Assembly: GCA_017964405.1 (NCBI GenBank)
Contig: JAGCSA010000028.1
Location: forward strand, 2,282 to 66,281
Direction: 5' to 3'
DNA from: Bacilli bacterium
Lineage (GTDB): Bacteria; Bacillota_I; Bacilli_A; RF39; UBA660
Length of the DNA stretch: 64,000 nucleotides
Numbering within the stretch: position 1 is the first letter of the stretch; every line of letters begins with the position of its first letter. Of this stretch, positions 16,544-61,565 are shown piece by piece. The translations under genes and the position numbers were made by a program. The notes beneath the pieces are model-generated. The model made no database searches. It had not been told where the DNA came from and saw only the letters and a program-made list of their open reading frames with translations.

Positions 16544-17203
16544 TTAGTAATCTAAATCAATCTTTTCATCCTCTAAATATTTAGAATATTCTTCGTTCTC
16601 ATTTCTCTTCGCAACATCCATATAAGATTCCTTACTAGAATCAGCTTTAAACAAACTATAATCTTCTTCTTGATAGTCTAATACATTCTCACCAATTAAA
16701 CTTTCAAGAACCGTATTATTAAACGTTACAGAACGTAAGATATAGCACATATTATTAACAGAATCTACAAGATCTCTCTTAGAAACATAAGCTTCTATCT
16801 TTACATAATTATAAACAAATTGAATAAAGTACTTTCCTTCTACTTCATCAATCTGAATAAATCCTGTCTTATCTTTATAATTCAATAATTTAGAATAGTA
16901 AGAAGAAGGATTTTCTTCATACGTATTCTCAATATTATGAAAATAACTAATCGCATCCACATATAGATAATACTTATTATTATTTTGGTCTAATAACAAA
17001 GCATTATATTCATCTTTAGTAACAAAGGAAATTCCCTTTGGTAAATAATATTTATAACCATCATAATATACATTAAAGATCTTTGCTTTTTGAGATAACA
17101 AATAATCCATATTGGTATCAATTTGATCAGATTCAAGTCGATGAATACTACAACCAGTCACAAATAAAACAGTAATAGAGAGTAAAACAATTAACTTTTT
17201 CAT
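16544..17203 (-). CDS. Lipoprotein, unknown function
   Basis: Signal peptide with lipobox LFVTGC. Confidence 0.5.
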   Translation of the reverse strand: MKKLIVLLSITVLFVTGCSIHRLESDQIDTNMDYLLSQKAKIFNVYYDGYKYYLPKGISFVTKDEYNALLLDQNNNKYYLYVDAISYFHNIENTYEENPSSYYSKLLNYKDKTGFIQIDEVEGKYFIQFVYNYVKIEAYVSKRDLVDSVNNMCYILRSVTFNNTVLESLIGENVLDYQEEDYSLFKADSSKESYMDVAKRNENEEYSKYLEDEKIDLDY

Positions 17204-18082: not shown

Positions 18083-19411
18083 ATGCTAAAGTTAAAGAAC
18101 ATAGAAAAAGAAAAATTTGATGAATTTGTTCGTAACCATAAGACCAAATCTCATTTTCTACAATCTCTTTCTTGGGGAGAGTTTTCCAGAGTAAAAAAGA
18201 ATCTAACTCCCTATTACATGGGATTAGTAAATGACGAAGATGAAATCGTCGCAGCAACTCTACTCTTAGAAAAACATCTTCCAATGAATAAATGTTATTT
18301 CTATGCCCCTCGTGGATTTGTACTAGATTATAAAAAGAAAGAAATCGTACGAGAGATGACAAAGAGAGTAAAAGAATTTGCGAAAAGTAAAAAAGCAATC
18401 TTTGTAAAAATAGATCCGGATATTATCAGAAAATCAACCAATTATCAAAATGAAAAAACAGAAAATCCTGATTATAATGAGATCTTCCAAACTCTAAAAT
18501 CTTGTGGTTTTAAACATCAAGGATATACAAAAAACTTTGAGACAATGCAACCAAGATATACCTTCCGAGTAGATTTAACACAAAGTATGGAAGATATAGA
18601 AGAACACTTTTCGAAAACAACCAAACAAAGAATTGCAAAAGCACAAAAACTAGATACAGAAGTCATGATAGGAGACAAAAGTGACATCAAAGAGTTCTAT
18701 CATCTAATGACACTAACAGAATCTAGAAAAGATTTTATATCCTATAACGAAGATTATTATGAAACATTATATGAAATCTTTAATGGAAATGAATCTACAA
18801 AAGCTACTCTATTCTTAGGAAAAATCAATATCACAAAGACAATCAAAGCATTAGAAAACAATTTAAAAACAGTGAATAATCAAATCTCTATATTACCAAT
18901 TGATAATTTAAGTAAAAGTGCCAAAGCAAAATTAACAGAATTAACCAAGCAAAAAGAAAATATTCAAGCAGAAATTGATAAATATGGAGAAGCGAAAAAA
19001 GAATATGGAAATGAAATTACATTAAGTGCTCATATGATTATTGAATATGGAAACAAAGCATGGGTTTTATATGCAGGAAATCATAATATTTTAAGTGAAA
19101 CCTATGTAAACTATAGTACATATTATGAACACATGAAGTATTGTAAAGAAAAAGGAATTGAAATATATGATCAATTCGGTACCATTGGAGATCTATCCAA
19201 AAATAATCCACGTTTAGGATTACATGAATTTAAAAAGAAATTTGGAGGAGACTACATTGAATTCATGGGAGAATGGGATTTAATTACAGATCCTCTCTTC
19301 TACTTTGTATTTACTAAACTAGTCCCAATTTACCGAAAAATCATTAGAAAACAAAGTAAGAAAAAACTAGAAGAAGAACTAAATCAAGACAAAGAAAAAG
19401 AGATCGAATGA
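18083..19411 (+). CDS. FemAB-family peptidoglycan cross-bridge aminoacyltransferase
   Basis: FemAB/MurM fold with central coiled-coil insertion (NLKTVNNQ...QKENIQAEIDKYGEAKK). Confidence 0.75.
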   Translation: MLKLKNIEKEKFDEFVRNHKTKSHFLQSLSWGEFSRVKKNLTPYYMGLVNDEDEIVAATLLLEKHLPMNKCYFYAPRGFVLDYKKKEIVREMTKRVKEFAKSKKAIFVKIDPDIIRKSTNYQNEKTENPDYNEIFQTLKSCGFKHQGYTKNFETMQPRYTFRVDLTQSMEDIEEHFSKTTKQRIAKAQKLDTEVMIGDKSDIKEFYHLMTLTESRKDFISYNEDYYETLYEIFNGNESTKATLFLGKINITKTIKALENNLKTVNNQISILPIDNLSKSAKAKLTELTKQKENIQAEIDKYGEAKKEYGNEITLSAHMIIEYGNKAWVLYAGNHNILSETYVNYSTYYEHMKYCKEKGIEIYDQFGTIGDLSKNNPRLGLHEFKKKFGGDYIEFMGEWDLITDPLFYFVFTKLVPIYRKIIRKQSKKKLEEELNQDKEKEIE

Positions 19412-19425
19412 TCTCTTTTTTTCGA

Positions 19426-19716
19426 TTAAATATTTCCAGCAGCAGCAGCATCTGCTTGTTGGTTTCTACCAGTAACTTCATAGATATGATTTCTCATAGT
19501 AACAACATCTTGGTAGAAAGGCTCAAATTGACTTTTAACGTGAGCTAAATACTCAGCATTAACATCCTCTGATCCTCTACTTTCCCAGTGAGTACCATGT
19601 AACATTCTCATAAGTCCATCGATATCATCGAAAACATCATGAATACGGGTAGCACTATTATAAATATTATCGGCTAAGCTAATAGCACGATCATAATCAG
19701 CTTCTTGAAATTCCAT
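19426..19716 (-). CDS. Small helical WXG-like protein, last gene of the WXG cluster
   Basis: 96 aa, HWESRGSE turn; Ala-rich C-terminus. Confidence 0.4.
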   Translation of the reverse strand: MEFQEADYDRAISLADNIYNSATRIHDVFDDIDGLMRMLHGTHWESRGSEDVNAEYLAHVKSQFEPFYQDVVTMRNHIYEVTGRNQQADAAAAGNI

Positions 19717-19736
19717 TCAAATTCACCTCCAAATAA

Positions 19737-20036
19737 TTAGAATAGATGACTTCCAGCAGATGCTAGATCATCCTCATTATCACTCAATATTTTTGCAGAA
19801 GTAACAATATTTTCTCCTCTTTGAGTAAGTCTTTGCTTAAAGTCCATTAATTCAGCAGTTTTTCCTTCGAAAGAACCCTTGTATGCAGTAGCAGCAGGAC
19901 CATTCCAAATACTTAATAATTCATGAGTATTTGATTCTAATTTGTGAATTTCTCCTAAAAAATCTTCTGAACTATCAATGGTGCTTTTTCCATCTTGACT
20001 CATTCCACCAGCTTGTACAATTAAACCATCAGACAT
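19737..20036 (-). CDS. WXG100 (ESAT-6-like) family protein
   Basis: 99 aa; LSIWNGPAATAY W-x-G turn. Confidence 0.7.
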   Translation of the reverse strand: MSDGLIVQAGGMSQDGKSTIDSSEDFLGEIHKLESNTHELLSIWNGPAATAYKGSFEGKTAELMDFKQRLTQRGENIVTSAKILSDNEDDLASAGSHLF

Positions 20037-20122
20037 AATTTCTAACCTCCATTCTTAACTAAATTATATCATCAAAACCAAAAATGCAATATAAACTATT
20101 GTAAATATGACATTTTTTTACA

Positions 20123-20410
20123 CTATATTGAAATAGCAGCAAGTTGATCATCTAGTTCTTGAATCTGTTGAGCAGAGCTTTTAACAAACTCTCCAAAATC
20201 ATTCATTTCTTGTGCTTCTACAGTAGCAGCAGCTGTTTGTGTATTACAGGTTGTCATGAAAGAAGATTTGGCATCTCCATTCCATCCACTTAAATCAGAT
20301 TCAATATTAGATGCATACGTTGTAGTAGCAGTCTTTAAATCACTAGCAGCTGAAATCATCTTGTCTCCTGCCGCACTTACTTGACCAAAATCACAAACAA
20401 ATTTCGCCAT
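20123..20410 (-). CDS. WXG100 (ESAT-6-like) family protein
   Basis: 95 aa; LSGWNGDAKSSF W-x-G turn; ELDDQLAA C-terminus. Confidence 0.7.
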   Translation of the reverse strand: MAKFVCDFGQVSAAGDKMISAASDLKTATTTYASNIESDLSGWNGDAKSSFMTTCNTQTAAATVEAQEMNDFGEFVKSSAQQIQELDDQLAAISI

Positions 20411-20411
20411 A

Positions 20412-21851
20412 TTATACCTCCACAGCCGTAGTAGGCTTTGTTTCAGGTTGTCCCGTGGTTGGAGTTGTCTCAGGTGTTGTCTCCTCTGCTATCTTTACAT
20501 GAGGAGCCTCAGGTGCTTTTACCTTCTCAGAAGGTTTATCTTTTCCAACATAACGTAGAACACCATCCCAATTCTTATTGGAATAATTTGTAATACTAAT
20601 CTCATTACCACCAGAATCACCATCATGTCCATCTTGATTTCCGTGAGCTCCGATCATCTTACCATTTCCGTAATACATTTCTGTATGAGTACCTTCATGT
20701 AGTAAGACATCTCCTGGTTGTAACTTATTAACATCTGGAGTACCAGGAATCCATTCAAATCCTGCTTTTACAAATGCATTCTTCATATTACCGGTATAAC
20801 TAGCACCGGTTTCTTTTACCTTAATACCAGATGCTTCGTAAGCAGAGATAACAAAGGAAGAACAATCGTAATTTGGATTACCCCAACGAGTTTCTTGAGA
20901 ATATCCATGGGTATTATCATTGGCAGTTGCCGTTGCCCAATCAAGAGCAGAAGTAACATAAGCACCCACTGTATAAGTACGATCAGAACCTAAGTTCTGG
21001 ATCTTCGTAACATAATCTCCAATTTTTTCTTGGAAGTTACCTTCTCCATCTTTCTTCCAATCATCATTAACAAAGAATTTAACTTGATCCCCACATTTCT
21101 CATCAATTTGACCAATAATACACTTGAATTTTTGGCCATCTTTTAAGGTGAATTCAATCACATCTCCTACACTACCGTATACCTTAGCACAAGAGATAAT
21201 GAACATTCCACCAATTGTAGCATAACCAGCTTTATTATATTCTAAATCTTCATGTTCAAATAGCTTCTTACCAAGAGATGTGAGAGCATCTTTTGATACT
21301 TTATCATGAAGAATTCCCTTAACTTCTGTTTTAATATCAACTGGTTCCTTTGCAGGAGTTGTTTCAGGTGCAGTTGTCGTAGGAGCTTCCGTACTAGGAG
21401 TCGTAACAATTGGAGTATAGCCTCCACCTCCACCGGTAGAACCTCCGCCGCCACCACTATAAGTGCCGCCACTTCCACCAGTTGGATTACTGCCACCTTT
21501 ATTGTTATTATTACCGGTTGGATCACCAGGATTTTTTTGCTTTTCTTGCTCTTTTGCTTTCGCAGCATCCTCTGCTGCTTTTTCAGCAGAAGATTGGAAT
21601 TTTAAACTATTTTGTAAAGCTGTATGAGAAGATACAACCGTATTTAATACATTCGATGTATTTTTAATCTTTGTCACACAGGCTTCTATATTACTAGCAA
21701 TCACAGCTTTCGGAGAAGCAAAATCAAAATCTTCACAACTAGTATCATATCCACTAACAGAACTAGAAATACTAGAAACTTTCGATGCAAGTGCATCAAG
21801 AGAAGAAGCTCCTGCTGTAACAGCATCTGTTTCAATCATAAAAATTGACAT
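20412..21851 (-). CDS. LXG/WXG-like N-terminal domain fused via Gly-rich linker to NlpC/P60 peptidoglycan endopeptidase
   Basis: N-terminal ~100-aa helical domain; G/S/T-rich linker; NlpC/P60 core YDCSSFVISAY...HTEMYYGNG; Pro/Thr-rich tail. Confidence 0.7.
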   Translation of the reverse strand: MSIFMIETDAVTAGASSLDALASKVSSISSSVSGYDTSCEDFDFASPKAVIASNIEACVTKIKNTSNVLNTVVSSHTALQNSLKFQSSAEKAAEDAAKAKEQEKQKNPGDPTGNNNNKGGSNPTGGSGGTYSGGGGGSTGGGGGYTPIVTTPSTEAPTTTAPETTPAKEPVDIKTEVKGILHDKVSKDALTSLGKKLFEHEDLEYNKAGYATIGGMFIISCAKVYGSVGDVIEFTLKDGQKFKCIIGQIDEKCGDQVKFFVNDDWKKDGEGNFQEKIGDYVTKIQNLGSDRTYTVGAYVTSALDWATATANDNTHGYSQETRWGNPNYDCSSFVISAYEASGIKVKETGASYTGNMKNAFVKAGFEWIPGTPDVNKLQPGDVLLHEGTHTEMYYGNGKMIGAHGNQDGHDGDSGGNEISITNYSNKNWDGVLRYVGKDKPSEKVKAPEAPHVKIAEETTPETTPTTGQPETKPTTAVEV

Positions 21852-21869
21852 ATGATTCCTCCATTCTTA

Positions 21870-22775
21870 TTATGCTTTTTGAGCATCATAACCAACATAT
21901 CGTAATACCCCATCCCAAGGGAAATTAACATATTTAGATACATTGATTTCTTTTCCACTAGAGTCTCCATTTCGACCATCTTTGTCACCATGGGCTCCAA
22001 CATTCATACCATCTCCGATATACATCTCGGTATGATGATTCTCACTTAATAAAACATCTCCTGGCTGTAAATCATCCATTTTCGGATTACCAGGAATCCA
22101 TTCAAATCCAGCTTTCGTAAAAGCAGATCTCATATTTCCGGTATAACCGGCTCCTGCTTCTTTTACTTGAATACCTGCTGCCTCATAGGCAGAAATAACA
22201 AGAGAAGAACAGTCATAATTTGGATTTCCCCAACGAGTTTTTTGAGAATATCCATGGGAATTATCTGCTGCAACAGCAACAGCCCAATCAATCGCACCCT
22301 GTACAACAGACCCAACATTGGTTGCTGCTTTTGCAATCGTCTCTCCTGTTGCTAAATTCGTAGTAGCAATTGCAGTCGCTTCTAGCTTTGTTCCAGAAGC
22401 AGATGCTAAATTACTTTCAATTTGACTTTTTAAAGAAGCTAATTCATTTTGATAACGACTGACATCTGCAGAATACTTACTAGCAGCAGCAGTATCGTTA
22501 TTCGAAACAGCCTGATTATAATTCCCCTGAGAAATCGAAACATTTTGCTTACAAGTTTTATATTGTTCATACAAATCACAAGCAGTTGCAAAAGATTCCA
22601 TCTGTCCTTTAATCGCACTTAAGAATTCAGATGTAAACTGTTCGGCTTTTGAATGAAAACTATCATAACTACTTCCTTGCCAAGAACCACTTAATCCACT
22701 CACCGTAGAATCGTAATTGGAAGAGTAAGAAGCAAGATTCCCAGAATCAGATCTAACTTGTCCACCACTAACCAT
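21870..22775 (-). CDS. WXG-domain::NlpC/P60 peptidoglycan endopeptidase fusion
   Basis: N-terminal LSGSWQGSSYDSF W-x-G turn; C-terminal NlpC/P60 YDCSSLVISAY...HTEMYIGDG, ~70% identical to the domain of 20412-21851. Confidence 0.7.
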   Translation of the reverse strand: MVSGGQVRSDSGNLASYSSNYDSTVSGLSGSWQGSSYDSFHSKAEQFTSEFLSAIKGQMESFATACDLYEQYKTCKQNVSISQGNYNQAVSNNDTAAASKYSADVSRYQNELASLKSQIESNLASASGTKLEATAIATTNLATGETIAKAATNVGSVVQGAIDWAVAVAADNSHGYSQKTRWGNPNYDCSSLVISAYEAAGIQVKEAGAGYTGNMRSAFTKAGFEWIPGNPKMDDLQPGDVLLSENHHTEMYIGDGMNVGAHGDKDGRNGDSSGKEINVSKYVNFPWDGVLRYVGYDAQKA

Positions 22776-22865
22776 AAGTCCTCCTATGATATCCTATAAT
22801 ATAATTCTAGCATTTCTACCACATAATAACAAATTATTTTGTAGTTTTTTAAAGCAATTGACACT

Positions 22866-24518
22866 TTATTTTCTAAGGAGAATCCGAGAAATACTCTGAA
22901 AGAAATGATCTCCAAAAATAGACTTAGTAAGATGAGATTGCCATGCATAAAGAAAATACACAACAGAACCCATCAAAGCATAGAAGAGAATAATAAGGAA
23001 ATTCATCATTCTCACATTTGAATAAACCGGTACAAGGAATCGAATAAGTACTAATACAAAAATCATAAGGAGACTTCCACATAGTACATCAATAAAATTC
23101 TTTAATAGATTTTCAAAAGATACTTCATACTTTCGATTTAATAAAATCATACATAGTAAGAAAGAAACTCCATATCCTAGAATCGTCGCCGTAATAAATC
23201 CATAATAAGGAGGTAATCCAATCGAAGTAAAGGTTCTAAGTAAACTCATATTGAAAATGATTTTAATCAAGATTCCAACAAGTAAACAAATGAATACATC
23301 CTTATAATCTTTTAAAGTTTGTAAAGTCGTAATAACCGTTGTAAATAAAGAAACAACAAAACCTACAAAAATATAATAAGATAACACACTAGCTCCGTAA
23401 GTACTATCTCCATAGAATAATCCCCATACAGCCTTAGACAAGAAACAAATCCCAAATGTCATGGGAACAATAAAATACAAAAGCATACTAAGAGACAAAT
23501 TAATCTTTTGATTCAATTCACTCTTATCCTTCTTCACAAGACTCTCTGTTAAATTAGGAATTAAACTGACAATAATTCCGGTGGATACAGCTGCAATAAT
23601 CATATTAAATTTCTGGGCCCATGTAGAAAAAATACTATAGACCGTTTCTGCATCTACTGCAGAATAATTGGCATATGTAACTAGTCCTTTTACGACACTG
23701 ACCATATCAACATAATTGTACATAGATTTAAAGAAATCAATCATAATAAAAGGAATCGCATAAACAACAATCTTTTTTAAAATGACTTTATCGGAAACCA
23801 AAGGTTCATTCTTATCTCTAACTTTTTCTTGAAATTTACTTCTATTTTTTAAATATTTTTCTAATAAATAAAAGTAAGAAATAAAAGCACCTACGGTTGC
23901 TCCAAAAAGAGCAACTCCTACTACATTGGATAATGATAAATGAAAGACTTTTAGAGTAATCAAACTTCCGAAAATAATAATCAGAACTCGAAATAATTGT
24001 TCTAATACTTGAGAAATAGAGGGAGGGCTCATAATACGATGTCCTTCAAAATAACCACGATAAACACTTAATAAAGGCCCAATTAAAATAGCAGAAGCAA
24101 TGATACGTATAACGAGAGTAACATCTTCTACACTATTTCCTCCTACAACATCTCCTAATATACTTTTCGCAAGGATTGGTGCAAATAATACCACTAATAA
24201 GAAACAAATAAAGCCCATTAAAACAGAAAGCCATTTTCCTAAAACAAAAGCTCTCTTCTTTGCTTTAATATAACCAAGAGTTTGATATTCCGAAACAATT
24301 TTACTAATCGCTAAAGGAATACCTGCTGAAGATAAGGACAAGAAAAACAAATAGATCGTATAAGCATATCCATATAAAGCTCCTCCTTCATCTCCAATAA
24401 TAGAATGAAAAGGAATAACATATAAAATACCCATGATTTTCGTCAAAATAATGCCGACAGTTGTAATAACAGCACCTTTTACAAAGGTATTTTTTCGCAT
24501 AGTAATATCCTTCTTCAT
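22866..24518 (-). CDS. MOP-superfamily polysaccharide/lipid-II flippase (SpoVB/YtgP/MurJ-like)
   Basis: About 14 TM segments; KGAVITTVGIILTKIMGILYVIPF N-terminal signature. Confidence 0.7.
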   Translation of the reverse strand: MKKDITMRKNTFVKGAVITTVGIILTKIMGILYVIPFHSIIGDEGGALYGYAYTIYLFFLSLSSAGIPLAISKIVSEYQTLGYIKAKKRAFVLGKWLSVLMGFICFLLVVLFAPILAKSILGDVVGGNSVEDVTLVIRIIASAILIGPLLSVYRGYFEGHRIMSPPSISQVLEQLFRVLIIIFGSLITLKVFHLSLSNVVGVALFGATVGAFISYFYLLEKYLKNRSKFQEKVRDKNEPLVSDKVILKKIVVYAIPFIMIDFFKSMYNYVDMVSVVKGLVTYANYSAVDAETVYSIFSTWAQKFNMIIAAVSTGIIVSLIPNLTESLVKKDKSELNQKINLSLSMLLYFIVPMTFGICFLSKAVWGLFYGDSTYGASVLSYYIFVGFVVSLFTTVITTLQTLKDYKDVFICLLVGILIKIIFNMSLLRTFTSIGLPPYYGFITATILGYGVSFLLCMILLNRKYEVSFENLLKNFIDVLCGSLLMIFVLVLIRFLVPVYSNVRMMNFLIILFYALMGSVVYFLYAWQSHLTKSIFGDHFFQSISRILLRK

Positions 24519-38067: not shown

Positions 38068-39471
38068 ATGAAAAAAAAGATCATTTTCTTAATCACACTA
38101 TTGACAATTATCTTAGTAGGAAAGACAGTCCATGCAGAAGAATATACATTCTATGAAGCAGAATATCTAGATAAAATGTATATGAACAAGTATGAGTATG
38201 CAACAAACACTATCTATTATCAGAGAGCAAGACTCTTTCGAAATAGTCAAACGAAAGAAATTGCATATTGTATGGAACCATTACGGTTCTTCCAAGAAGG
38301 AAGTATCTATACGAGAACCAATGCTCCTAGTACTCTATCAGAAGAAAAGCTAAATCGAATCAAAAAGATTGCTTACTTCGGATGGAGATATAAAGATCAT
38401 TATGATGCATCCTGGTATGCTGTCGCACAAATGATGATTTGGAGAGAATCGAGTTCTGATATTGGAGACTACTACTTCACAGATACCTTAAATGGTCAAA
38501 GAACAAATGCTTTTGATTATCAAATGGATGAAATCAATCAATTAATCGAATCTTATGATCGAGAAATTCCAGTCGAGAATCAAACCATTACTCTAGTGGA
38601 AGGAATGACAAAAGAAATATCGATAGGAGATACTCTCGATTTTTATACAACTGATAATTCAGAAGTCACATTAGAAAATGGAGTAATCAAAATTCATCCA
38701 TTAGAAGAAGGAGAATACACGATTACCCTTCATAGAATCCAAGAAATCGTACATGGAATGCCTATGGAGATTTATGAATCAGAAACGAGTCAAAATATGA
38801 TTCAAAGAGGAGATTTAGATCCTAAAGAAGTCTCTTTTAAAATAAAAGTCATCCAAAACCATATAGAGATTCATAAAACAGATGAAGAAACAGATACTCC
38901 CCAGGGAGATGCTAGTCTAGATGGAGCTCTATTCGAATTATACGATGAAGAAGGAAATCTATATGATACGATTGAAATCATCCAGCAAACTGGAATTCTT
39001 ACTAGTATCCCATTCGGAACTTATACATTAAAAGAAGTGTCTCCAGGAATCGGATATGAATTAAACAAACAAGAATATACATTTACTCTTTCAGAAGAAA
39101 ATCCAAACTATGAAACAACCATCTCCAACAAGGTAATCAAAAAGAAAATCATCCTTGAAAAAACCTATGGAGAAGAAAACAAACCAGAAGAAAAAATAGA
39201 TTTTCAAATCTGGAAACAAGAAGAATTACTAGATACCATTACAACCGATGAAGAAGGAAAAGCAGAAATCATTCTACCCTATGGGATCTATATCATCAAA
39301 CAAGCCAATACAACAGAAGGATATGCTTTATTAGAACCATTCACCATCATCATAGAGAACTCTGAAGAAGAAATAATTTCCTTACATGACTTCAAAATAC
39401 CAGTACCAGATACATCATCTATCAGTATTCTTCAATATATTCTTCATACAATTGTGATGATTCTATGTTAA
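38068..39471 (+). CDS. Surface adhesin: thioester domain + two CnaB/prealbumin-fold domains + non-canonical sorting signal
   Basis: Signal peptide; AYCMEP thioester-type Cys motif; two FELYDEEGNL...GTYTLKEV / KAEIILPYGIYIIKQ CnaB-like units; C-terminal IPVPDTSS + hydrophobic tail. Confidence 0.55.
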   Translation: MKKKIIFLITLLTIILVGKTVHAEEYTFYEAEYLDKMYMNKYEYATNTIYYQRARLFRNSQTKEIAYCMEPLRFFQEGSIYTRTNAPSTLSEEKLNRIKKIAYFGWRYKDHYDASWYAVAQMMIWRESSSDIGDYYFTDTLNGQRTNAFDYQMDEINQLIESYDREIPVENQTITLVEGMTKEISIGDTLDFYTTDNSEVTLENGVIKIHPLEEGEYTITLHRIQEIVHGMPMEIYESETSQNMIQRGDLDPKEVSFKIKVIQNHIEIHKTDEETDTPQGDASLDGALFELYDEEGNLYDTIEIIQQTGILTSIPFGTYTLKEVSPGIGYELNKQEYTFTLSEENPNYETTISNKVIKKKIILEKTYGEENKPEEKIDFQIWKQEELLDTITTDEEGKAEIILPYGIYIIKQANTTEGYALLEPFTIIIENSEEEIISLHDFKIPVPDTSSISILQYILHTIVMILC

Positions 39472-40019
39472 AGAAAGTATTTTCCTTACTCTGTATCGGA
39501 ATGATGCTAGTAACAATCACAACCATCATGAAAATCAGTACAGAAGAAGCAATCATTCACACGATTCCCATACAATATCCAGAAAAAATAGCGAAAACAA
39601 AAACAATCCAAGTAGAACAACCAATCGGAAGAATTATCATTCCTAAGATTCAAATCAATCAATCGTTATATGATATCAATAGTCCCAAAAACAACATAGA
39701 AGAAAACATAACTATTCTAAAAGAATCTACTTTTCCAGATCAAGAAAACAGTCTCTTATTCATTGCAGCTCATTCTGGAAATACAAAAGTAGCTTTCTTT
39801 CAAAATCTTGATCAATTACAAATAGGAGATGAGATTCAGATACTCTATCAAAATCAAGAATACGAGTACAACATCATTGATATCTACGAACAAGAAAAAA
39901 ATGGCTATATCAGTGGAATGAGGCAAAAAACAAAAAGACAACTCATCTTAACAACGTGTTGTCCCAATAAAGATAATTGTCAATTAATCATTAATAGTAT
40001 AGAAAAAGAGTCTCATTAA
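39465..40019 (+). CDS. Sortase family transpeptidase
   Basis: N-terminal anchor; LFIAAHSG His region; LILTTCCP (TLxTC active site). Confidence 0.65.
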   Translation: MLKKVFSLLCIGMMLVTITTIMKISTEEAIIHTIPIQYPEKIAKTKTIQVEQPIGRIIIPKIQINQSLYDINSPKNNIEENITILKESTFPDQENSLLFIAAHSGNTKVAFFQNLDQLQIGDEIQILYQNQEYEYNIIDIYEQEKNGYISGMRQKTKRQLILTTCCPNKDNCQLIINSIEKESH

Positions 40020-41266
40020 GACTCTTTTATTAATATTCTCTTTGCTTCTTCAAACTGTGTATCAAAAGCATTGGGTTCTACATAAAATTCAGGGCTCTGT
40101 TCTACAACAACATCGGGAACAACCCCTATTCCTGTTACACTCTTTCCTTTCGGAGACAACCATTTCTCAATCGTAAATTTCATACTAGAACCATTACTGA
40201 AAGAAACAGTCTTTTGAACATTTCCTTTTCCATAACTATTGGTTCCCACAATCGTTGCCTTTTTATGGTCTTGAAAACAAGCAGCAACGACTTCTGCCGA
40301 AGATGCAGTTTCTCCATTGATTAAAACAACCATTGGATAATCCAAAGTCTGATTATTGAGAGAATAAACCTTCTTCCTAACTCCATTACTCTCGATTTGA
40401 TAAAGAACGGTTTTTTTAGGGAAAAAGCGACTCAAAATATTCTTAGCTTGTACTAAATGTCCTCCCGGATTATTTCGAATATCTAATATCAAAGAATCCA
40501 TTCCTTCCTTTTCTAATCTCTTCAATACTTTCTCAAATTGAGTATAAAAATGACTTGTAAAAATAGAAATACGAATATAACCAATCTTATGATCATCTTC
40601 TTCAATAATTTGTCCTAGTACGGTTTCAGCCTCTATTTTTTGTCGTTCAACAGAAAGTGTTAACTCTTCTTCTCCTCTTTGAACAACAAGCTCTAAAGAA
40701 GACCCAACATCTCCTTCTACTAATTTCTGTAATTCACCCGAATATATTCCCTTACAACTATGTCCATCTATACTGATAACTAGATCATTGATTTGAACAC
40801 CTGCCTTCTTCGCAGGACCATTCTCTAAAACCGATATCACACGATTATACTCTCCATCAAATTCAACAGTAATACCAATTCCTACATATTCTCCATCAAC
40901 AGATTCATTAAAACTACTAGTAGAATCAGGATCTAAGAAAGAAGAATAAGGATCTTCTAAAGAAGAAACCATTCCCTTAATCGCAGATTCAGCCAATTGA
41001 CTCTCGTCAACCTCTTCATAATAGTTATCCACAATATTATTATAGGCACTGACAATTTCTCCTAAATTAGTATTAGAACGTACTCTACTTAAATTACTAT
41101 TACCATACGTAATCATATAACCAATAATCACACCAAAAATAACAGAAATAAGAATCATCACAATAACTTCAAATAAAGAGAATTGTGAATCATTTTCCAT
41201 TCCACTTAAAAAGAACTGTTTCTTTTTCTTGTTATTTTTCTTTTTCTTCTTTTTATTCATAAACAC
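40016..41266 (-). CDS. S41 C-terminal processing peptidase with PDZ domain
   Basis: VLINGETASSAEVVA serine motif; SYGKG; N-terminal TM. Confidence 0.85.
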   Translation of the reverse strand: MFMNKKKKKKNNKKKKQFFLSGMENDSQFSLFEVIVMILISVIFGVIIGYMITYGNSNLSRVRSNTNLGEIVSAYNNIVDNYYEEVDESQLAESAIKGMVSSLEDPYSSFLDPDSTSSFNESVDGEYVGIGITVEFDGEYNRVISVLENGPAKKAGVQINDLVISIDGHSCKGIYSGELQKLVEGDVGSSLELVVQRGEEELTLSVERQKIEAETVLGQIIEEDDHKIGYIRISIFTSHFYTQFEKVLKRLEKEGMDSLILDIRNNPGGHLVQAKNILSRFFPKKTVLYQIESNGVRKKVYSLNNQTLDYPMVVLINGETASSAEVVAACFQDHKKATIVGTNSYGKGNVQKTVSFSNGSSMKFTIEKWLSPKGKSVTGIGVVPDVVVEQSPEFYVEPNAFDTQFEEAKRILIKES

Positions 41267-44233: not shown

Positions 44234-46516
44234 TTAATTTTTCTTAAATGCTCTTCTAGTTCTCTCTTCTTTTGTTTTAATTTTAACAGCCTGATTAATC
44301 GCATCGGAATCTCGAAATTGAGTCTCATGGATTTTTTCAATAACCGTTAAATCCACTTTCTTTGTTTCCTTAGAGGCACTTTTTACACATAATCGCAAAC
44401 GATCTCCAAGATAATAGTTTTGTTCCCCATCTAAAGAAACCAAAGAATAACTTTCTTCACTATAAACATAATCTCCCTTTAAATCCCATACACGTACAGT
44501 AGCTTCTGCTAGGTTATCAAATTGTACAACCATACATTCATTGGAAAGACCGATAACCGTTGCTTCACACTCTTCTCCAATATGATGAGACATCATATCA
44601 GCAAACTGCATACGGAATACTTCTTGCTCTAAATCATCTGCCACTTTTTCCGTATGAGTCACTCTCTCTGCAATCTCAGGAAGTCTAGAAATCCATTTTT
44701 TTCTTTGAACCAATCCTGGATCTGGTCGAAAGACACAGTCCCAAGAAATATCCTGATTAATTTTATCACCATATCTTCTAGCTGGAGATGTTCCCTGCAT
44801 GTATTCATCTTCTGCCAATCCATTATGTCCCACATTCACTTCACTATATTTGGCACGTGATTGTGTCTTGATTAATTCTGTTAATAAGAAACTTGATAAT
44901 CTTCCACAATTAGAAACATGAGAAATAAGTTTTTGGAAAGCAGCATGATTGGATGCTAATTCTTCTGCATCATATCCATGAAAAGGAAGACCAATGGCAT
45001 CCAACATTTCTAAATACTTCTTTAATTTATCAACATTTGGTGCTTCATGAACACGATAAAGACATGGAATACCATGTTTCTGAAAGAATTTAGCTCTGGT
45101 AACATTAGCAATTAACATAAATTCTTCAATAATGTTTTCCGCAACATCTTGTGTACGAACACCAATATCTAACATATGACCATTCGGTCCATAAATACCA
45201 CTCGGTTCAGGTCGATTAAATTCATAAGCTCCGGCAGCCATTCTCTTATCATGCAGAATTTTAGCCAAATCTCTCATAACCTGTAGTGTTTGTTCATAAG
45301 ATTGATATTCTGTAGGAATATCTCCCCCTTTTAAGATTTGATTCACGGTATCATAATTCATTTTTAATTTAGAACGAGTAACAGTAGGAACATAACGGTA
45401 ATTTACTACTTTTCCTTCTGGAGTAATCTCTAAAATATCTGATATTGTCAAACGATCTTTATCTTGATTTAAAGAACCAATTTGATTGGCAATTTTACGA
45501 GGATAATTAGGAAGTACAATTCCACCAGGATAATAACTATTACCTTTACGGAATCCATCTCGATCAAGAGGAGATCCATAAGGAACTAAAGAACTAATAT
45601 CAATAATATCTACTTCTAAAACATAGTTTCCTCTTTCATTCTTATAACAACTAATGGCATCATCCATATCTTTTGTCGTAATACCATCTAAAGTAATCGT
45701 TTCATTTTGGGTACGATCTTCTCTTCCAATACGATCAACATCTCTTACTTCATCGATAATATGCTCTAGTTGTTCTAAAGATTCATTACTAAATTCATTA
45801 TCTACCCCTAATTTAAATGCTTCCCATAGAATATCTTCATTGGGATCATCTTTATGGTTAAATACTCTTACAATAGAAGCCGTATAAAAATTGGGAGCTG
45901 TTTGTTCCTCTAAAGAAACAGCAACTCTTTGTCCCTCAATCGCTTCCCCTTTTAAAGCAATGGTAATGGATTGTTTTTTCTTATCAATAGGACGTACAAA
46001 ATAACTAGAACCAATACAATAAACTTCTCCTGGAATATATTCTAGATTTCGATCTAAGACCTTAACAACCTTAATACCCTGAGTACCACCAATATCAATT
46101 AATACAAAATCTCCATCAATAGCACCATTCGTATTTTCTTTATGAACTTCATACTTTTCATTATTAACAACTAATTGACCATCCCGATCTACATAAGAGG
46201 TTGTAACAGATACTTTTCCACGACCATCTCGATTTCCATAAAATCTACCTTTTCGAAAAGAAGTTTTGGAAAAAGCAATATAATTCTCATTCGGAGTCAT
46301 ATAGATCTCATATTGAGTTACCCCTTCTCGAATCAGTTCCAATAATTCTTTCTTTTCTTCTGCCGTTAAAATAACATCGCTATGCAATTCTTCTGATTTC
46401 AACTTTTCAATTCTAGAAACAATTTTTTCAAAAGAAGCAGCCTTCTTTTCCTTTTTTAATGCTAGTTCTAGATAATGTTTCATTCCACTCATCCCCCAAT
46501 ACGTATACCTTAACAC
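44234..46516 (-). CDS. RNB-domain exoribonuclease (RNase II/R family paralog)
   Basis: ITLDGITTKDMDDAIS RNB motif; cold-shock/S1-like flanks. Confidence 0.75.
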   Translation of the reverse strand: MLRYTYWGMSGMKHYLELALKKEKKAASFEKIVSRIEKLKSEELHSDVILTAEEKKELLELIREGVTQYEIYMTPNENYIAFSKTSFRKGRFYGNRDGRGKVSVTTSYVDRDGQLVVNNEKYEVHKENTNGAIDGDFVLIDIGGTQGIKVVKVLDRNLEYIPGEVYCIGSSYFVRPIDKKKQSITIALKGEAIEGQRVAVSLEEQTAPNFYTASIVRVFNHKDDPNEDILWEAFKLGVDNEFSNESLEQLEHIIDEVRDVDRIGREDRTQNETITLDGITTKDMDDAISCYKNERGNYVLEVDIIDISSLVPYGSPLDRDGFRKGNSYYPGGIVLPNYPRKIANQIGSLNQDKDRLTISDILEITPEGKVVNYRYVPTVTRSKLKMNYDTVNQILKGGDIPTEYQSYEQTLQVMRDLAKILHDKRMAAGAYEFNRPEPSGIYGPNGHMLDIGVRTQDVAENIIEEFMLIANVTRAKFFQKHGIPCLYRVHEAPNVDKLKKYLEMLDAIGLPFHGYDAEELASNHAAFQKLISHVSNCGRLSSFLLTELIKTQSRAKYSEVNVGHNGLAEDEYMQGTSPARRYGDKINQDISWDCVFRPDPGLVQRKKWISRLPEIAERVTHTEKVADDLEQEVFRMQFADMMSHHIGEECEATVIGLSNECMVVQFDNLAEATVRVWDLKGDYVYSEESYSLVSLDGEQNYYLGDRLRLCVKSASKETKKVDLTVIEKIHETQFRDSDAINQAVKIKTKEERTRRAFKKN

Positions 46517-46551: not shown

Positions 46552-47571
46552 CTAAGAAATTCTTCTAACGGTAAGAATATGTGTACCAGATCCATTTAAC
46601 CAATAATTAACATCACTGACGATAACACCGGTACCATAATTAGCTGCATGAATCATCTGTCCATTACCAACATATAAAGCAGAATGGGTCGGATTTCCAT
46701 CCGAATAACCCCATATCAGAATATCTCCTGGTTGAGCCTCTGCATAGCTAACTCCATATCCTACATATTGTTGAGAATAAGAACTTCTACTAATAGAAAT
46801 GCCCATACAAGAATAGACATAAGATACAAATCCACTACAATCAAATCCATATGGACCTGCAGAATTCGCCATATATGGCATTCCAAGTAACGAATAAGCA
46901 ATGGAAACAACATCATTTCCTTGTGGATTCGCTGGGGCTCCATAATGAACAGGATAATAGACAGGAACTGGTTTTTCCTCTACTTCTAACTGATACGTTA
47001 AAGTAGCTTTATTACCAGAACCATCAACAGCTGTAATCGTAATTTGATGAGTTCCAACACTACTAATATCTCCATCAGAAGATAATGCATAGTATTTCAA
47101 ACTATCAGCAGGAGCATTTTCCAAAAACTCCAAATCCCCATCAATCGCATCATTAACAGATGCAATATTCTCTTTGAGATCATAGTCATCTCCCTCTGTA
47201 ATGGATACAGATTCATTCTTTAAAGAAATAATAGGAGATACCGTATCTACAACCGATATCACAACGGGTACATCTTTCACCATATTATCTTTTTTAACTT
47301 CTAGAATAACCTCTTGTGGTCCAAGAACACTGGTATCAAGATCCTGTTTTACAGAAACGATTTCACCATCAACCTCTTTTATCAATTTTTTGATATCATA
47401 ATTAGCAGTACCATATTCAACAGATGCAGTCTTTTTCACAACGACCTTAATACTTTGAAAAGTAGTGTAATTACGATATGCACAACAACTGATTATCATT
47501 ACGAATGATAACACCAACAATAAGAAGACGCGAATAACCTTCTTTATCGACGGTCTATCAAGACTTTTCAT
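46552..47571 (-). CDS. Membrane-anchored NlpC/P60 (C40) cell-wall endopeptidase with Ig-like domains
   Basis: YGFDCSGFVSYVY...HSALYVGNG...H catalytic triad region. Confidence 0.8.
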   Translation of the reverse strand: MKSLDRPSIKKVIRVFLLLVLSFVMIISCCAYRNYTTFQSIKVVVKKTASVEYGTANYDIKKLIKEVDGEIVSVKQDLDTSVLGPQEVILEVKKDNMVKDVPVVISVVDTVSPIISLKNESVSITEGDDYDLKENIASVNDAIDGDLEFLENAPADSLKYYALSSDGDISSVGTHQITITAVDGSGNKATLTYQLEVEEKPVPVYYPVHYGAPANPQGNDVVSIAYSLLGMPYMANSAGPYGFDCSGFVSYVYSCMGISISRSSYSQQYVGYGVSYAEAQPGDILIWGYSDGNPTHSALYVGNGQMIHAANYGTGVIVSDVNYWLNGSGTHILTVRRIS

Positions 47572-47744: not shown

Positions 47745-48128
47745 TTAGCTGATATAATTGAAGTTTGTTCCAACACCAGTACCACCACTAGAAGGAGCAG
47801 CACTTGCAGTTGAACCAGATCCAAGACTTTCAGCAGCAGCTCTTAAAGCAGCTTCCTCTTCATCATATGCACTACAAATATTAGCAATACTACTAATAAA
47901 ATTTGCATGTGTTGAACCAAAATCAGTAAACATTTGATCTACTGTTTCGAAAGCAGCAAAATAAGTATCAGCTCCGGAACTAATCCAAGAACCTTTAAGA
48001 GTTGCAGCTTCATTACGAATCTGTGTAAATAGAGAATCTACTTCCGCATAAATATTGTTTATTTCTGTAGCTACTTGACCAACTGAATCTGTTTCTACAT
48101 CAATATTATTATCACCAATAAATGTCAT
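47745..48128 (-). CDS. ESAT-6/WXG100-like small protein
   Basis: 127 aa helical; LKGSWISSGADTYFAAFE turn; Ser/Gly-rich tail. Confidence 0.5.
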   Translation of the reverse strand: MTFIGDNNIDVETDSVGQVATEINNIYAEVDSLFTQIRNEAATLKGSWISSGADTYFAAFETVDQMFTDFGSTHANFISSIANICSAYDEEEAALRAAAESLGSGSTASAAPSSGGTGVGTNFNYIS

Positions 48129-48142
48129 CCGAAATCACTTCC

Positions 48143-48433
48143 CTATACCATTTTAGATAAAGCATCACTTAAAGCTTTATCAAATCCAGATGCTCTATCA
48201 CTTACAAATTTAGCATGTTTCTCTAATTCTGTATTGATTTTCTTTGCATCTGCACTAAAAGAATTATACTTTGTAACTAATGCTTGTCCAGCTTTATCTT
48301 TCCAAGAAGATGTTACTGAACTCATCTTAGTATCCATTTCAACAATTTTAGGTCCAAGTTCTCCAACTAAGCTCGTAATCTTAGCAGCATAACCAGCTGC
48401 CGCAGCAGTATCTACTTGTAAAGAAGAACCCAT
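48143..48433 (-). CDS. ESAT-6/WXG100-like small protein
   Basis: 96 aa; SSWKDKAGQA turn. Confidence 0.5.
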   Translation of the reverse strand: MGSSLQVDTAAAAGYAAKITSLVGELGPKIVEMDTKMSSVTSSWKDKAGQALVTKYNSFSADAKKINTELEKHAKFVSDRASGFDKALSDALSKMV

Positions 48434-48499
48434 ATAATCACTTCCTATACTTAGCTTAATTTAAAAAGAGCACATTGAATAATGTGCTGATTTTTTATA

Positions 48500-48892
48500 T
48501 TACATTACAGCTGCTGAGCTAACACCTGCACCAGTGCCACCGCCGCCACCAACTGATCCTACAGAAGATGGGCTGTGAGCTTGAATTACTCTTAGTAATT
48601 CTGCTTCCTCAGCATCGTATTCATTAGCAACTTTAGATAAAGCAGCAGCTAAATCTGTTAATGAAGCAGATACTGTATTGAATGCAGTCTTGTCAATTTC
48701 AACAAGATTAGTCTTTAAAGCACCACCAACAGCAGTACCTTCTCCACCACATGCAGCTACAGCATCATTACCAGCTTTGTTAACTGTATCAATTACTTGA
48801 CTAATTGTATTTAACTCAGTCGTTATAGTGGTAGCAGCGTCTACCAACGTACTGGTTTCTACATCAATTGCATTGTCTCCAACGAATGCCAT
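48500..48892 (-). CDS. ESAT-6-like small protein, paralog of 47745-48128
   Basis: Shares MxF(V/I)GDNxIDVET N-terminus and YDAEEAxLR motif with 47745-48128; Gly-rich tail. Confidence 0.5.
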   Translation of the reverse strand: MAFVGDNAIDVETSTLVDAATTITTELNTISQVIDTVNKAGNDAVAACGGEGTAVGGALKTNLVEIDKTAFNTVSASLTDLAAALSKVANEYDAEEAELLRVIQAHSPSSVGSVGGGGGTGAGVSSAAVM

Positions 48893-48930
48893 TAAAAATC
48901 ACTCCTTTATAATTATTATTTCTTTTTTTA

Positions 48931-49224
48931 TTAGTATAATTTTTGAACGTTCGTTCTTACTGTTTGTTGAGTAGCAGCAGCTTTAGATGCCATCTCATTT
49001 AATAGTTTTCTGTTAAGAGCTAAATTTGTTTCAATCTTCTCAAATTCAGTATTAGCAGCAGTAGCAACTTCCGTCCAATCAGAACCACCTTTATCGTTCC
49101 ATAGAGGGGAATCCATAGCAGTTTTAATTTTTGCTCTTGATGTAGCATAAGTAGTACATGCTGAATTGTATGTACCAGCTGCAGCAATCAATCCACTATT
49201 ATCAATTTGGAAAGCCATATCTAT
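48931..49224 (-). CDS. WXG100 (ESAT-6-like) family protein
   Basis: About 97 aa from MAFQIDNSGLIAAAG; PLWNDKGGSDW turn; resembles 20123-20410. Confidence 0.55.
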   Translation of the reverse strand: MDMAFQIDNSGLIAAAGTYNSACTTYATSRAKIKTAMDSPLWNDKGGSDWTEVATAANTEFEKIETNLALNRKLLNEMASKAAATQQTVRTNVQKLY

Positions 49225-49322
49225 CATACCTCCTATTCTCATTATAGCATAACAATCCATTTTGTCAAAAATAATCTACATTATTTTCAGCCTTACTTTA
49301 CACCGAACTGTCCCTTATTTTT

Positions 49323-58320: not shown

Positions 58321-58525
58321 AATATCCCTCCGTTACAACATCAATATAATACCATAAAACCATTGGGATTGCAACTAAAATCAATGGAGAACAAATCCCT
58401 ATAACAAATCCCATTTTTAATAACATAATCATAATAATAGCAAGTATATAGTACTATACAAATGAACATAAATACATTTATCTTTTAATTAGTGTAATAA
58501 CACTACACTTTTTTATAACTAAAAA

Positions 58526-59296: not shown

Positions 59297-59348
59297 AGAC
59301 TCATCTCCAAACATGCTATATTATAACATATTCATACATACAAAACAA

Positions 59349-60098: not shown

Positions 60099-60101
60099 AT
60101 T

Positions 60102-61451: not shown

Positions 61452-61565
61452 AGAATCACCACTTTTATTATACTACAATCTGTAAAGAAAAATCATTTAT
61501 TATTCTTTATTGAAAGATGAGAAGAATTTATGATATAATGAACTAGAATAAGGAAGTGGCTAGAG

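Follow-up and report, generated by a model that had tools for sequence, protein, structure and literature searches.

The stretch of DNA analysed here (contig JAGCSA010000028.1 of a Bacilli bacterium, positions 2,282 to 66,281; 64,000 nucleotides, hereafter the window) contains two adjacent genes for predicted peptidoglycan hydrolases, which we call A and B, and, directly 3' of B, three genes for small WXG100-type proteins, W1, W2 and W3 (20410..19426). All five lie on the minus strand in the order A-B-W1-W2-W3. Gene A (22775..21870) encodes a protein of 301 amino acids in which a WXG-type helical domain is fused to an NlpC/P60 domain of the ELLD subtype, and gene B (21851..20412) encodes a multidomain hydrolase of 479 amino acids. 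The two products are identical to the NCBI proteins MBP5678783.1 and MBP5678782.1, respectively, each of which is named 'MAG: C40 family peptidase [Bacilli bacterium]' (MAG, metagenome-assembled genome). W1 (20123..20410; 95 amino acids, WXG100-like) starts 1 bp after the stop codon of B and is followed by W2 (19737..20036; 99 amino acids, WXG100) and W3 (19426..19716; 96 amino acids, WXG100-like). (Note that W1, W2 and W3 lay outside the region covered by an earlier note on this DNA.) Because the gaps between the genes are 18, 1, 86 and 20 bp, with a promoter-like site upstream and a terminator downstream, the five genes are most simply read as one operon. The promoter-like site is a pair of overlapping sigma-70-like elements (22804..22852, minus strand) 5' of A, in the 90-bp gap after a gene for a MurJ-like protein, with 9 of 12 matches and a TG extension; this is a consensus match only, and such sites are no more numerous in the region than in shuffled sequence. 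The terminator-like hairpin (19395..19420, minus strand), an 11-bp stem followed by a T-run, comes after W3 and is common to the operon and to a convergent FemAB gene.

Both hydrolases carry a C-terminal domain that passes the cut-offs of two families. The domain of A (residues 156–301; 21873..22310) scores 57.1 bits against ELLD (PF25309; cut-off 27) and 27.8 bits against NLPC_P60 (PF00877; cut-off 23), and that of B (residues 296–437; 20541..20966) scores 55.6 and 30.6 bits, respectively. The putative catalytic triads, at conserved Cys-His-His positions, are C189, H248 and H262 in A and C330, H389 and H403 in B, and the motifs HGYSQ.TRWGNPNYDCSS, PGDVLL and HTEMY, by which the earlier note had recognised a common NlpC/P60 core in the two genes, are present. 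Profile searches of the PDB with the catalytic domain of A returned RipC and CwlO among other NlpC/P60 enzymes. The usual target of such enzymes is the stem peptide, and from the domain assignments of A and B we predict that both are NlpC/P60-type peptidoglycan hydrolases of the ELLD subtype.

The similarity between the two proteins is confined to this domain. BLASTP aligns only their C-terminal 144 residues (154–297 of A with 295–438 of B; 69% identity, E = 4e-73), so the N-termini differ, as the earlier note had said; only the catalytic module is duplicated, and the N-termini of A and B are unrelated. The shared domain is 72% identical in DNA; at third codon positions the figure is 58%, and no stretch longer than 22 nt is free of mismatches. 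Because identity across the shared domain is 69% for protein and 72% for DNA, the duplication is old, and the two modules are old paralogues under purifying selection rather than a recent tandem duplicate. The observation of the earlier note, a catalytic core common to two adjacent genes, is confirmed. In a neighbour-joining tree of C-terminal domains (without bootstrap support) from related loci, which we collected from GTDB species-representative genomes and metagenome contigs (loci L001 and so on), A of the window groups with A of L001 and B of the window with B of L001, which would make the A/B split older than those species. In the lineage of L011 and L013 the A and B catalytic domains cluster together in the same tree, a pattern that would fit an exchange of modules, or gene conversion, between the A and B carriers.

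The catalytic domain of A is about 40% identical to phage tail lysins, and it is this likeness that would favour an origin of A and B as endolysin or tail-lysin remnants of a prophage or an integrative and conjugative element. The Pfam names ('endolysin-like' for ELLD and 'bacteriophage peptidoglycan hydrolase' for Amidase_5), PHROG matches that include 'tail protein with lysin activity', identity of about 40% to tail lysins of Eggerthella and Bifidobacterium phages, and the GC content of A and B (38.3%, against 32.5% for the window) all point the same way. However, megablast of 19400–22900 found no DNA match among 50,697 phage records, the flanks of the cassette hold no structural genes of phages and none for integrase or conjugation, its position is syntenic across species, and only the catalytic domain is phage-like; as we read it, the higher GC fits the Gly/Ala/Ser-rich make-up of the proteins better than a foreign origin. 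Given the lack of a megablast match, the housekeeping flanks and a likeness limited to the catalytic domain, we rejected a phage or mobile-element origin, which we consider scarcely credible. Phage tail lysins and the diffocin hub hydrolase CD1368 share with A and B the ELLD/NlpC-P60 subgroup and attack the wall from outside; they are joined to tail hub domains, whereas A and B have carriers that resemble those of type VII secretion system (T7SS) substrates and no virion or tail context.

The N-terminal domain of A (residues 1–128; 22392..22775) resembles such a carrier. In an AlphaFold2 model built from 20 orthologues (mean predicted local distance difference test score, pLDDT, 80.5; 75–97 in the N-terminal domain) it consists of a helix (residues 4–30), a turn with W32-Q-G34, a second helix (35–91) and a third (95–128), so that the first two helices form a helix-turn-helix hairpin whose turn carries W-x-G. 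Across the 20 orthologues neither W32 nor G34 varies, and C189, H248, H262 and an 'MVS' start are invariant as well. The domain matches Pfam WXG100 with E = 1.2e-4 and 22.7 bits (cut-off 27.3) and TIGR03930 with E = 1.1e-4 and 22.3 bits (NCBIfam cut-off 44.85). Moreover, profile-profile comparison (hhalign) relates it to the W1 family around the WxG turn with 73% probability, and Foldseek matches its structure to PPE41, PPE15 and PPE4 of the mycobacterial T7SS with probabilities of 0.97–0.99. The linker that follows (residues 129–155; 22311..22391) is Ala/Ser/Thr-rich and disordered (pLDDT below 50 at residues 133–154), and its length and sequence differ among orthologues. Homologues of A number more than 1,200; its full-length orthologues (about 300 residues) extend down to 48% identity. 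We propose, from the sequence and the model, that A's N-terminal domain is a T7SS targeting module.

B has a different N-terminal part. Its first 105 residues (21537..21851) form a helical domain that contains no tryptophan (helices 8–33, 45–83 and 88–103, in a model with a pLDDT of 71). The turn region carries a conserved G-Y-D-T-S-C, Y35, D36 and H76 are conserved, and the domain is retained in homologues whose C-terminal enzyme differs; we propose that it is a second type of T7SS targeting module. A disordered Gly/Ser/Thr/Pro-rich linker (residues 106–167; 21351..21536; pLDDT 27–47), which cannot be aligned among homologues, leads to a beta-rich middle domain of about 128 residues (168–295; 20967..21350; pLDDT about 90). 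(Note that two open reading frames, ORFs, that overlap the low-complexity Gly/Ser linker, 21242..21568 on the minus strand and 21306..21605 on the plus strand, are almost certainly spurious, artefacts of its repetitive composition.) The middle domain has no Pfam match in any of 15 members and no sequence match in the PDB. Foldseek matches it weakly to the p97 N-domain, kiwellin and a double-psi-beta-barrel (E = 0.08–0.2), and the top Foldseek match is CD1368, in an alignment of 307 columns that takes in both the middle and the C-terminal domain. Weakly double-psi-beta-barrel-like in the model, the middle domain may serve in wall binding or represent a degenerate 3D/RlpA-like module. The protein ends in a disordered Pro/Thr/Glu-rich tail (residues 438–479; 20415..20540) with a conserved hydrophobic TAVEV. 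The earlier description of B (a W-less helical domain, a G/S-rich linker, an extra middle domain and a PT-rich tail) is borne out by model and alignment, as are, for A, the SWQG turn, with its two invariant residues, and the WXG-NlpC/P60 fusion, for which the significant though sub-cut-off WXG100 matches, the invariant WxG, the three-helix model and the PPE matches speak.

The hydrophobic C-terminus is a feature of B-type proteins in general (TAVEV in the window, 20415–20429; TAVMV, GVAV or TVSV elsewhere). Tail-specific proteases select their substrates by non-polar C-termini, and an NlpC/P60 hydrolase is degraded by such a protease in E. coli; the window encodes a CtpB-like S41 tail-specific protease with PDZ domains (40016–41266), about 19 kb from B.

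Neither A nor B has a signal peptide or a membrane anchor. Over 19-residue segments hydropathy peaks at 1.09 in A and at 1.24 in B, compared with 2.73 in a Sec-type NlpC/P60 protein encoded in the same window (47571..46552); over residues 1–30 the maximum of A is –0.31, and the corresponding value for the Sec-type protein is 3.27. Hydropathy likewise gives no membrane or secretion signal for any product of the operon (A, B and W1–W3), and W1–W3 are without a hydrophobic segment.

The three small proteins fit the stand-alone WXG100 format of about 100 residues, which A and B, at 301 and 479 residues, do not. W2, with W-N-G at residues 44–46, scores above the Pfam WXG100 cut-off of 27.3 (28.4 bits; TIGR03930 E = 6.7e-7). 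W1, with W-N-G at residues 43–45, falls below it (25.1 bits, E = 2.1e-5; TIGR03930 E = 3.6e-5), as does W3 (18.9 bits, E = 1.9e-3; TIGR03930 E = 1.2e-6), and all three, like the N-terminal domain of A, stay under the TIGR03930 cut-off. W1 and W2 are related to one another (hhalign, 96% probability), W3 always comes after W2 in related loci, and W1–W3 are kept in every complete related locus. In L019 both A and W1 are missing and B-W2-W3 is kept, and in L017 W2 and W3 are kept together and a fragment of the A N-terminal domain lies beside two W1 copies. Because of the joint absence in the first locus and the arrangement in the second, there is a hint, from these two loci, that W1 pairs with A-type carriers and that W2 and W3 form a pair.

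A HMMER scan of 1.84 billion representative proteins with residues 1–135 of A as the query (E ≤ 1e-3) found the A-type domain in 161 proteins, and in nearly all of them the match starts at residue 1. Pfam scans of 99 representatives of at least 240 residues placed it with at least ten enzyme families: NLPC_P60 (20), Peptidase_C39_2 (14), ELLD (13), CHAP (11), Peptidase_C39 (11), Peptidase_M23 (9), Peptidase_C70 (8), Peptidase_M15_4 (6), Peptidase_S9 (6), Esterase (5), Phage_lysozyme2 (3), Amidase_5 (3), Glucosaminidase (2), VanY (2) and NAGPA (1). The domain itself matches WXG100 at E < 1e-3 in 23 of the 99. Of the 55 families matched, the 25 commonest include no nuclease, deaminase, ADP-ribosyltransferase or NADase family. 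We describe the cargo as mainly cell-wall enzymes, together with esterases and with papain-like peptidases whose target is unclear, and say 'mainly' because the papain-like C39_2 and C70 domains are not established wall hydrolases. The A-type domain thus appears, from this census, to be a small, lineage-restricted family of dedicated carriers.

The related loci add to this picture of exchangeable cargo. There fusions of the A-type domain with a glucosaminidase (L010, L012) and with an alpha/beta-hydrolase esterase (L014, L015) are seen as well, and what comes after the N-terminal and middle domains of B is ELLD, a Peptidase_C39_2-like domain or nothing that was recognised; a few B homologues have a CHAP domain in place of the middle domain. 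A third N-terminal helical carrier ('MNE.Y.VSDYGIFSDAI...VFMGP'), which weakly matches T7SS_ESX_EspC, bears Phage_lysozyme2 or glucosaminidase domains (L003, L007–L009, L011, L013, L020). The helical parts evolve much faster than the enzymes: against L001 the N-terminal domain of A is 38% identical and W1, W2 and W3 are 40%, 29% and 34% identical, compared with 83% and 86% for the catalytic domains of A and B (leucyl-tRNA synthetase, LeuRS, 91%).

One of the related loci joins the cassette to a type VII gene. In L009, from a related uncultured bacterium whose A is 58% identical to that of the window, the cassette reads A, glucosaminidase, B', W1, W2, W3, and 95 bp after it lies a gene for a 1542-residue protein with FHA and FtsK_SpoIIIE domains that passes the firmicute EssC equivalog model TIGR03928 (955.5 bits; cut-off 778.4). 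Close homologues of this EssC (40–83% identity) are numerous in metagenomes, and several are named 'type VII secretion protein EssC [Bacilli bacterium]' at NCBI (for example MBR6948690, MDO4996335, MBQ7104361 and MBR4262369, all from MAGs other than that of the window). In L009 (13882–18510) and L105 (10001–14638) the module of essC, an 84-residue gene and several genes of about 100 residues lies between murD/enolase and secG; other essC loci of the lineage have essC, the 84-residue gene and five to eight genes of about 100 residues, some of them WXG100 or DUF4176. At the equivalent site of the window (about 58500–61500) the order is murD-murI-Cu_oxidase_4-secG, with no essC. Because of this, the T7SS core locus appears to be mobile within the lineage or to have been lost from the murD-secG site.

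The precomputed Pfam annotations at four essC loci (L085, L095, L105 and L107) list no EssB/YukC, EsaA/YueB or YukD families, and these loci encode unannotated proteins of 84, 339–450 and 558 residues. Divergent T7SS subtypes were reportedly described by Garrett et al. in 2024, and the T7SS of this lineage may be one of these or a further one.

On these grounds we think it fairly probable, judging from sequence comparison, structure models and analogy, that A and B are peptidoglycan hydrolases exported by a T7SS together with WXG100 partners. We arrive at this because the proteins have no Sec signal, because a WxG helical domain stands at the N-terminus, because three WXG100 genes share the operon, because the carrier family is used for extracytoplasmic enzymes and because essC adjoins the cassette in L009. 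In the cytoplasm, the helical N-terminal domains of A (a WxG three-helix domain) and of B (a W-less hairpin) would bundle with the small WXG100 proteins. The bundle would form a composite, elongated secretion signal, as LXG toxins do with Lap proteins and EatA with TapA1/TapA2, and an EssC-type type VII ATPase would recognise the complex and export it across the membrane. Outside, the flexible linkers would let the catalytic domains reach and cut peptidoglycan stem peptides, and the beta-rich middle domain of B may help to bind or open glycan. The extra cargo of the relatives (glucosaminidase, phage-tail-type lysozyme and esterase, on the same or the third carrier) would then make up a battery of wall-degrading enzymes with an export route in common.

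Several observations weigh against T7SS export. Neither the window nor its 75.7-kb contig contains essC or another T7SS core gene: in the window there is no ORF longer than 806 residues, the large ORFs are housekeeping genes by Pfam, and tblastn with the EssC proteins of L009 and L105 found no remnant. Adjacency to essC was seen in one relative only (L009), and the essC loci of P0251, P0204, P0188 and P0215 have no hydrolase cassette. The WXG100 scores of A are below the curated cut-offs, the N-terminal domain of B gives no match to the WXG100 profiles (PF06013, TIGR03930), LXG (PF04740) gives no match at E up to 1 for A or B nor any in the 99-member census, and neither the N-terminal domain of B nor the third carrier is significantly related to WXG100 in profile-profile comparison (hhalign, probability ≤38%). 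Lastly, the full-length structural matches of A lie with coiled-coil autolysins, and its helical domain could be regulatory instead of a secretion signal.

This last point bears on a different account of A, namely that it is a divisome hydrolase of the CwlO/PcsB/RipC kind, whose coiled coil autoinhibits the enzyme and docks on FtsX, the WxG and the WXG100 neighbours being coincidental. The best full-length Foldseek matches of A are chains of Cg1735, a RipC-like coiled-coil NlpC/P60 autolysin (E ~1e-3), its best PDB profile match is RipC in the FtsEX-RipC complex 8idc, with CwlO also appearing, the NCBIfam RipC model (NF038345) matches A with E = 4e-6, and ftsEX is present in a related genome. 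CwlO, PcsB, RipC and Cg1735, which are NlpC/P60 or CHAP enzymes controlled by FtsEX, indeed resemble A in having a long helical N-terminal domain before the catalytic domain (NlpC/P60 in A). However, CwlO, PcsB and RipC are exported by Sec or Tat with signal peptides, these enzymes have no WxG turn and no WXG100 partners, and their N-terminal domain is not shuffled, whereas A lacks a signal peptide, has an invariant WxG at the helix turn, and shares its N-terminal domain with at least ten other enzyme families. Moreover, the RipC match reaches 26.4 bits where the cut-off is 425, the operon always includes three WXG100 genes, essC adjoins the cassette in L009, and no ftsEX lies near the cassette in the window. 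A kinship with cell-division proteins such as PcsB had been named in the earlier note as what would speak against its reading; the missing signal peptide, the low RipC score and the reuse of the domain on many enzymes make it very unlikely that A works in this way.

T7SS export of A and B can be set beside several known systems. To our knowledge, the characterised substrates of T7SSb are small WXG100 proteins and LXG-type toxins; the latter are mostly nucleases, NADases, membrane-active proteins, lipases and the lipid II phosphatase TelC, each with an immunity protein. The LXG toxins TelA–C of Streptococcus intermedius (PMC5555719, PMC9600955) share with A and B an elongated helical N-terminal domain with an x-G turn, no Sec signal, and a linker followed by a C-terminal enzyme; they also share small helical partner genes in the operon and the exchange of C-terminal modules. 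Lap helical partners contribute to the secretion signal of LXG toxins (PMC9600955), and TelC, like A and B as we picture them, acts on the wall pathway outside the membrane. Unlike LXG toxins, A and B have no LXG Pfam match, no immunity gene and a conserved core-genome locus; their partner genes are three WXG100-type genes downstream instead of Lap1 and Lap2 (DUF3130/DUF3958) upstream, and the cargo of the A carrier is mainly wall hydrolases, papain-like peptidases and esterases. A closer parallel in cargo is EatA of the Mycobacterium abscessus ESX-4 system, an envelope hydrolase fused to a WXG-like N-terminal domain, which forms a pre-secretion complex with a pair of WXG100 proteins, TapA1 and TapA2 (bioRxiv 10.64898/2026.08.24.746431). 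That system is an actinobacterial T7SSa with an inhibitor (immunity) protein at the locus, whereas the cassette described here belongs to Bacillota, with EssC of the T7SSb type (in a relative), three partners, no inhibitor gene and a carrier unrelated in sequence. NlpC/P60 is among the commonest predicted T7 cargo families in Mycobacteriales (PMC13444075). In the literature that we covered, which is partial and does not prove absence, peptidoglycan hydrolases of Bacillota with a WXG or LXG tag are not described: the papers that join T7SS or LXG with a peptidoglycan hydrolase concern EssH, TelC and the mycobacterial EatA only, and a search on 'endolysin-like domain' returned only an unrelated podophage paper.

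EssH suggests a further role for such enzymes. The passage of T7SS-exported proteins through the thick Gram-positive wall is described as an open question (PMC13492133), and A and B might be dedicated to cutting a local hole for the T7SS or its substrates, as S. aureus EssH or the lytic transglycosylases of type III and IV systems do. In L009 the cassette lies right beside essC, streptococcal and enterococcal T7SS loci contain CHAP proteins of unknown role (PMC13492133), and EssH, a papain-like CHAP peptidoglycan hydrolase functionally tied to T7SSb, sets a precedent for a T7SSb that needs a dedicated hydrolase (PMC13059805). EssH, however, is exported by a Sec signal peptide, has an unstructured N-terminal domain and is not itself a T7SS substrate (PMC13059805), whereas A and B have no signal peptide and T7-substrate-like helical domains; a T7SS substrate that opens the wall for the T7SS would be a circular requirement. 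In addition, up to seven hydrolases per locus with several bond specificities, plus esterases, exceed what a local gap needs, and in most genomes the cassette is not beside essC. We therefore regard dedicated wall opening as quite improbable as an explanation of the cassette.

The position of the cassette is conserved. In about a dozen related loci the order is LeuRS, then a MurJ-like gene, one to three A-type genes, extra hydrolases, one or two B-type genes and W1-W2-W3, and the same loci continue after W3 with a convergent FemAB gene, TrmB, p219 and p444. The genomes that share this order, UBA3789 and UMGS532 among them, are labelled as MAGs of uncultured Bacilli, Bacillales, 'Mollicutes' or Firmicutes, and the operon as such is syntenic in about 15 species of uncultured gut Bacilli. 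Related species differ in copy number and in cargo, with up to seven hydrolases per locus; the cassette is relocated in L008, L009 and L020, and its first gene is missing in L019. The comparison indicates that the locus is a conserved core-genome position and not a mobile or strain-variable island.

Such conservation is what would be expected if the operon encoded the producer's own wall-remodelling and cell-separation enzymes, with a T7SS in place of Sec, an account that departs from the export of A and B described above in their role only. Apart from the core position between LeuRS and the MurJ-like gene on one side and FemAB and TrmB on the other in about a dozen species, it is favoured by full-length A orthologues down to 48% identity in 1:1 orthology, by catalytic domains nearly as conserved as LeuRS, by the lack of an immunity gene in the operon, by complementary bond specificities (endopeptidase, glucosaminidase and lysozyme) like those of an autolysin set, and by an overall shape of A like that of the coiled-coil autolysins Cg1735, RipC and CwlO. 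Set against these are the variation in copy number and cargo, the swapping of modules between carriers, the relocations and the loss of the first gene. Moreover, no LysM, SH3b or CWB wall-binding domain occurs in any of the proteins, the catalytic domain is closest to phage tail lysins and the diffocin hub hydrolase, which attack from outside, and a Sec-type NlpC/P60 is present in the same window. Of the housekeeping single-copy genes that the earlier note had named as counting against its reading, the conserved core position was found and the single copy was not, and we rate a set of housekeeping autolysins as possible, if rather unlikely.

The earlier note had also seen in the two genes the pattern of a polymorphic toxin, a fixed hydrolase with a variable N-terminal domain. 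That logic is inverted: polymorphic toxins conserve the N-terminal trafficking domain and vary the C-terminal toxin. The modular pattern does hold across genomes, where the N-terminal domains of A and B are each conserved as a trafficking-type domain and joined to many C-terminal enzymes, and it fails between these two genes. A 2012 survey of polymorphic toxins has Tox-NlpC/P60 only with delivery by the type VI secretion system, by the Photorhabdus virulence cassette (PVC) or by TcdB-type toxins (PMC3482391). The pairing of toxin with immunity gene is not seen here, and, in place of the intraspecific variability of such toxins, comparison between species shows synteny and vertical conservation of the locus. 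Neither hydrolase is followed by an immunity gene, with just 18 bp between A and B and 1 bp between B and W1, and the operon contains none; a neighbouring immunity factor was among the things that the earlier note had proposed to test for. Because there is no immunity gene, because the cargo is mainly wall enzymes and because the core position is conserved, the label 'polymorphic toxin' is not established.

Two neighbours were considered in this connection. The lipoprotein p219 (17203..16544) was rejected as an immunity candidate, being unlinked to the cassette where the latter is relocated (L008, L009 and L020). The second is the FemAB gene (18083–19411, plus strand), which is convergent with the operon and tandem-duplicated in L012, L014, L015 and L017, with a second copy of about 30% identity. 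Lysostaphin with Lif and zoocin A with Zif are secreted bacteriolysins with FemABX-like immunity; they are Sec-dependent M23 endopeptidases that cut cross-bridges. The comparison of their FemABX-like immunity with the present locus rests in part on a remark in PMC12116727. As with lysostaphin and zoocin A, a wall hydrolase gene here adjoins a gene of the FemAB family; unlike there, the adjacency is lost in L008, L009 and L020, and the FemAB gene is 88% conserved and housekeeping-like.

The wider setting is the core chromosome of a low-GC Gram-positive bacterium. The immediate neighbours of the cassette are LeuRS, a Fic protein, the MurJ-like protein (a MurJ/SpoVB-like flippase), FemAB and TrmB, and further genes in the window include a second FemAB paralogue, MurD, EzrA, RNase R, formate-tetrahydrofolate ligase, a SpaA/TED pilin and the CtpB-like protease. 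The SpaA-type pilin, with a thioester (TED) domain, is followed by a 184-residue ORF, a possible sortase (38068–40019), and fits a thick-walled Gram-positive envelope, even though some related MAGs are labelled 'Mollicutes'. Two RNB-family exoribonuclease genes (44234–46516 and 55915–58026) are present; one encodes a complete RNase R (OB, CSD, RNB and S1) and the other a 760-residue paralogue with CSD2 and RNB matches only.

A second T7-substrate-like cluster lies at 47745–51587 on the minus strand. It encodes a 754-residue protein, followed by genes of 109 and 130 residues and two WXG100 genes (48433..48143 and 48128..47745), both above the Pfam cut-off. The 754-residue protein has an N-terminal helical region, about ten SHOCT-like helical repeats ('GKMS.E.Y.K..D') and a Gly/Pro/Thr-rich linker. 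Comparison of this cluster with the small proteins beside essC in relatives gave no significant similarity. Directly 3' of its WXG100 genes lies the conventional NlpC/P60 gene (46552–47571, minus strand; 339 residues, 78.8 bits), whose product has an N-terminal membrane anchor or signal; it implies that the ordinary route, too, serves this organism for the export of a wall hydrolase.

As for what A and B would do once outside, our confidence in T7SS export with WXG100 partners does not extend to any one role. Lysis of neighbouring Gram-positive cells comes close to an even call: the T7SSb precedent, the variable copy number, the swapping of modules, the absence of classical wall-binding domains and the kinship to lysins that attack from outside are points in favour of antagonism. 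Remodelling or separation of the producer's own wall is a tenable role that we hold somewhat short of that, and the opening of the wall for the T7SS itself is an unlikely one.

If export is T7SS-dependent, peptidoglycan hydrolases would join the classes of T7SSb cargo in Bacillota, and the enzymes would be natural signal-less lysins, kin to phage tail lysins, whose specificities could be mined. They raise the questions of whether a T7SS can serve wall housekeeping and of how a producer tolerates exported lysins without immunity proteins; the organisms are uncultured gut Bacilli represented by MAGs, so tests would have to be heterologous. We entertain, tentatively and as a doubtful proposition from sequence comparison, the idea that the T7SS is the routine export route of the autolysins of this lineage, with carriers and three chaperone-like WXG100 partners in place of Sec signals and wall-binding modules. 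This would span the full wall-cutting set (endopeptidase, glucosaminidase, lysozyme, M23 and CHAP) and, if true, would make the T7SS part of wall growth and cell separation, instead of or besides interbacterial warfare.

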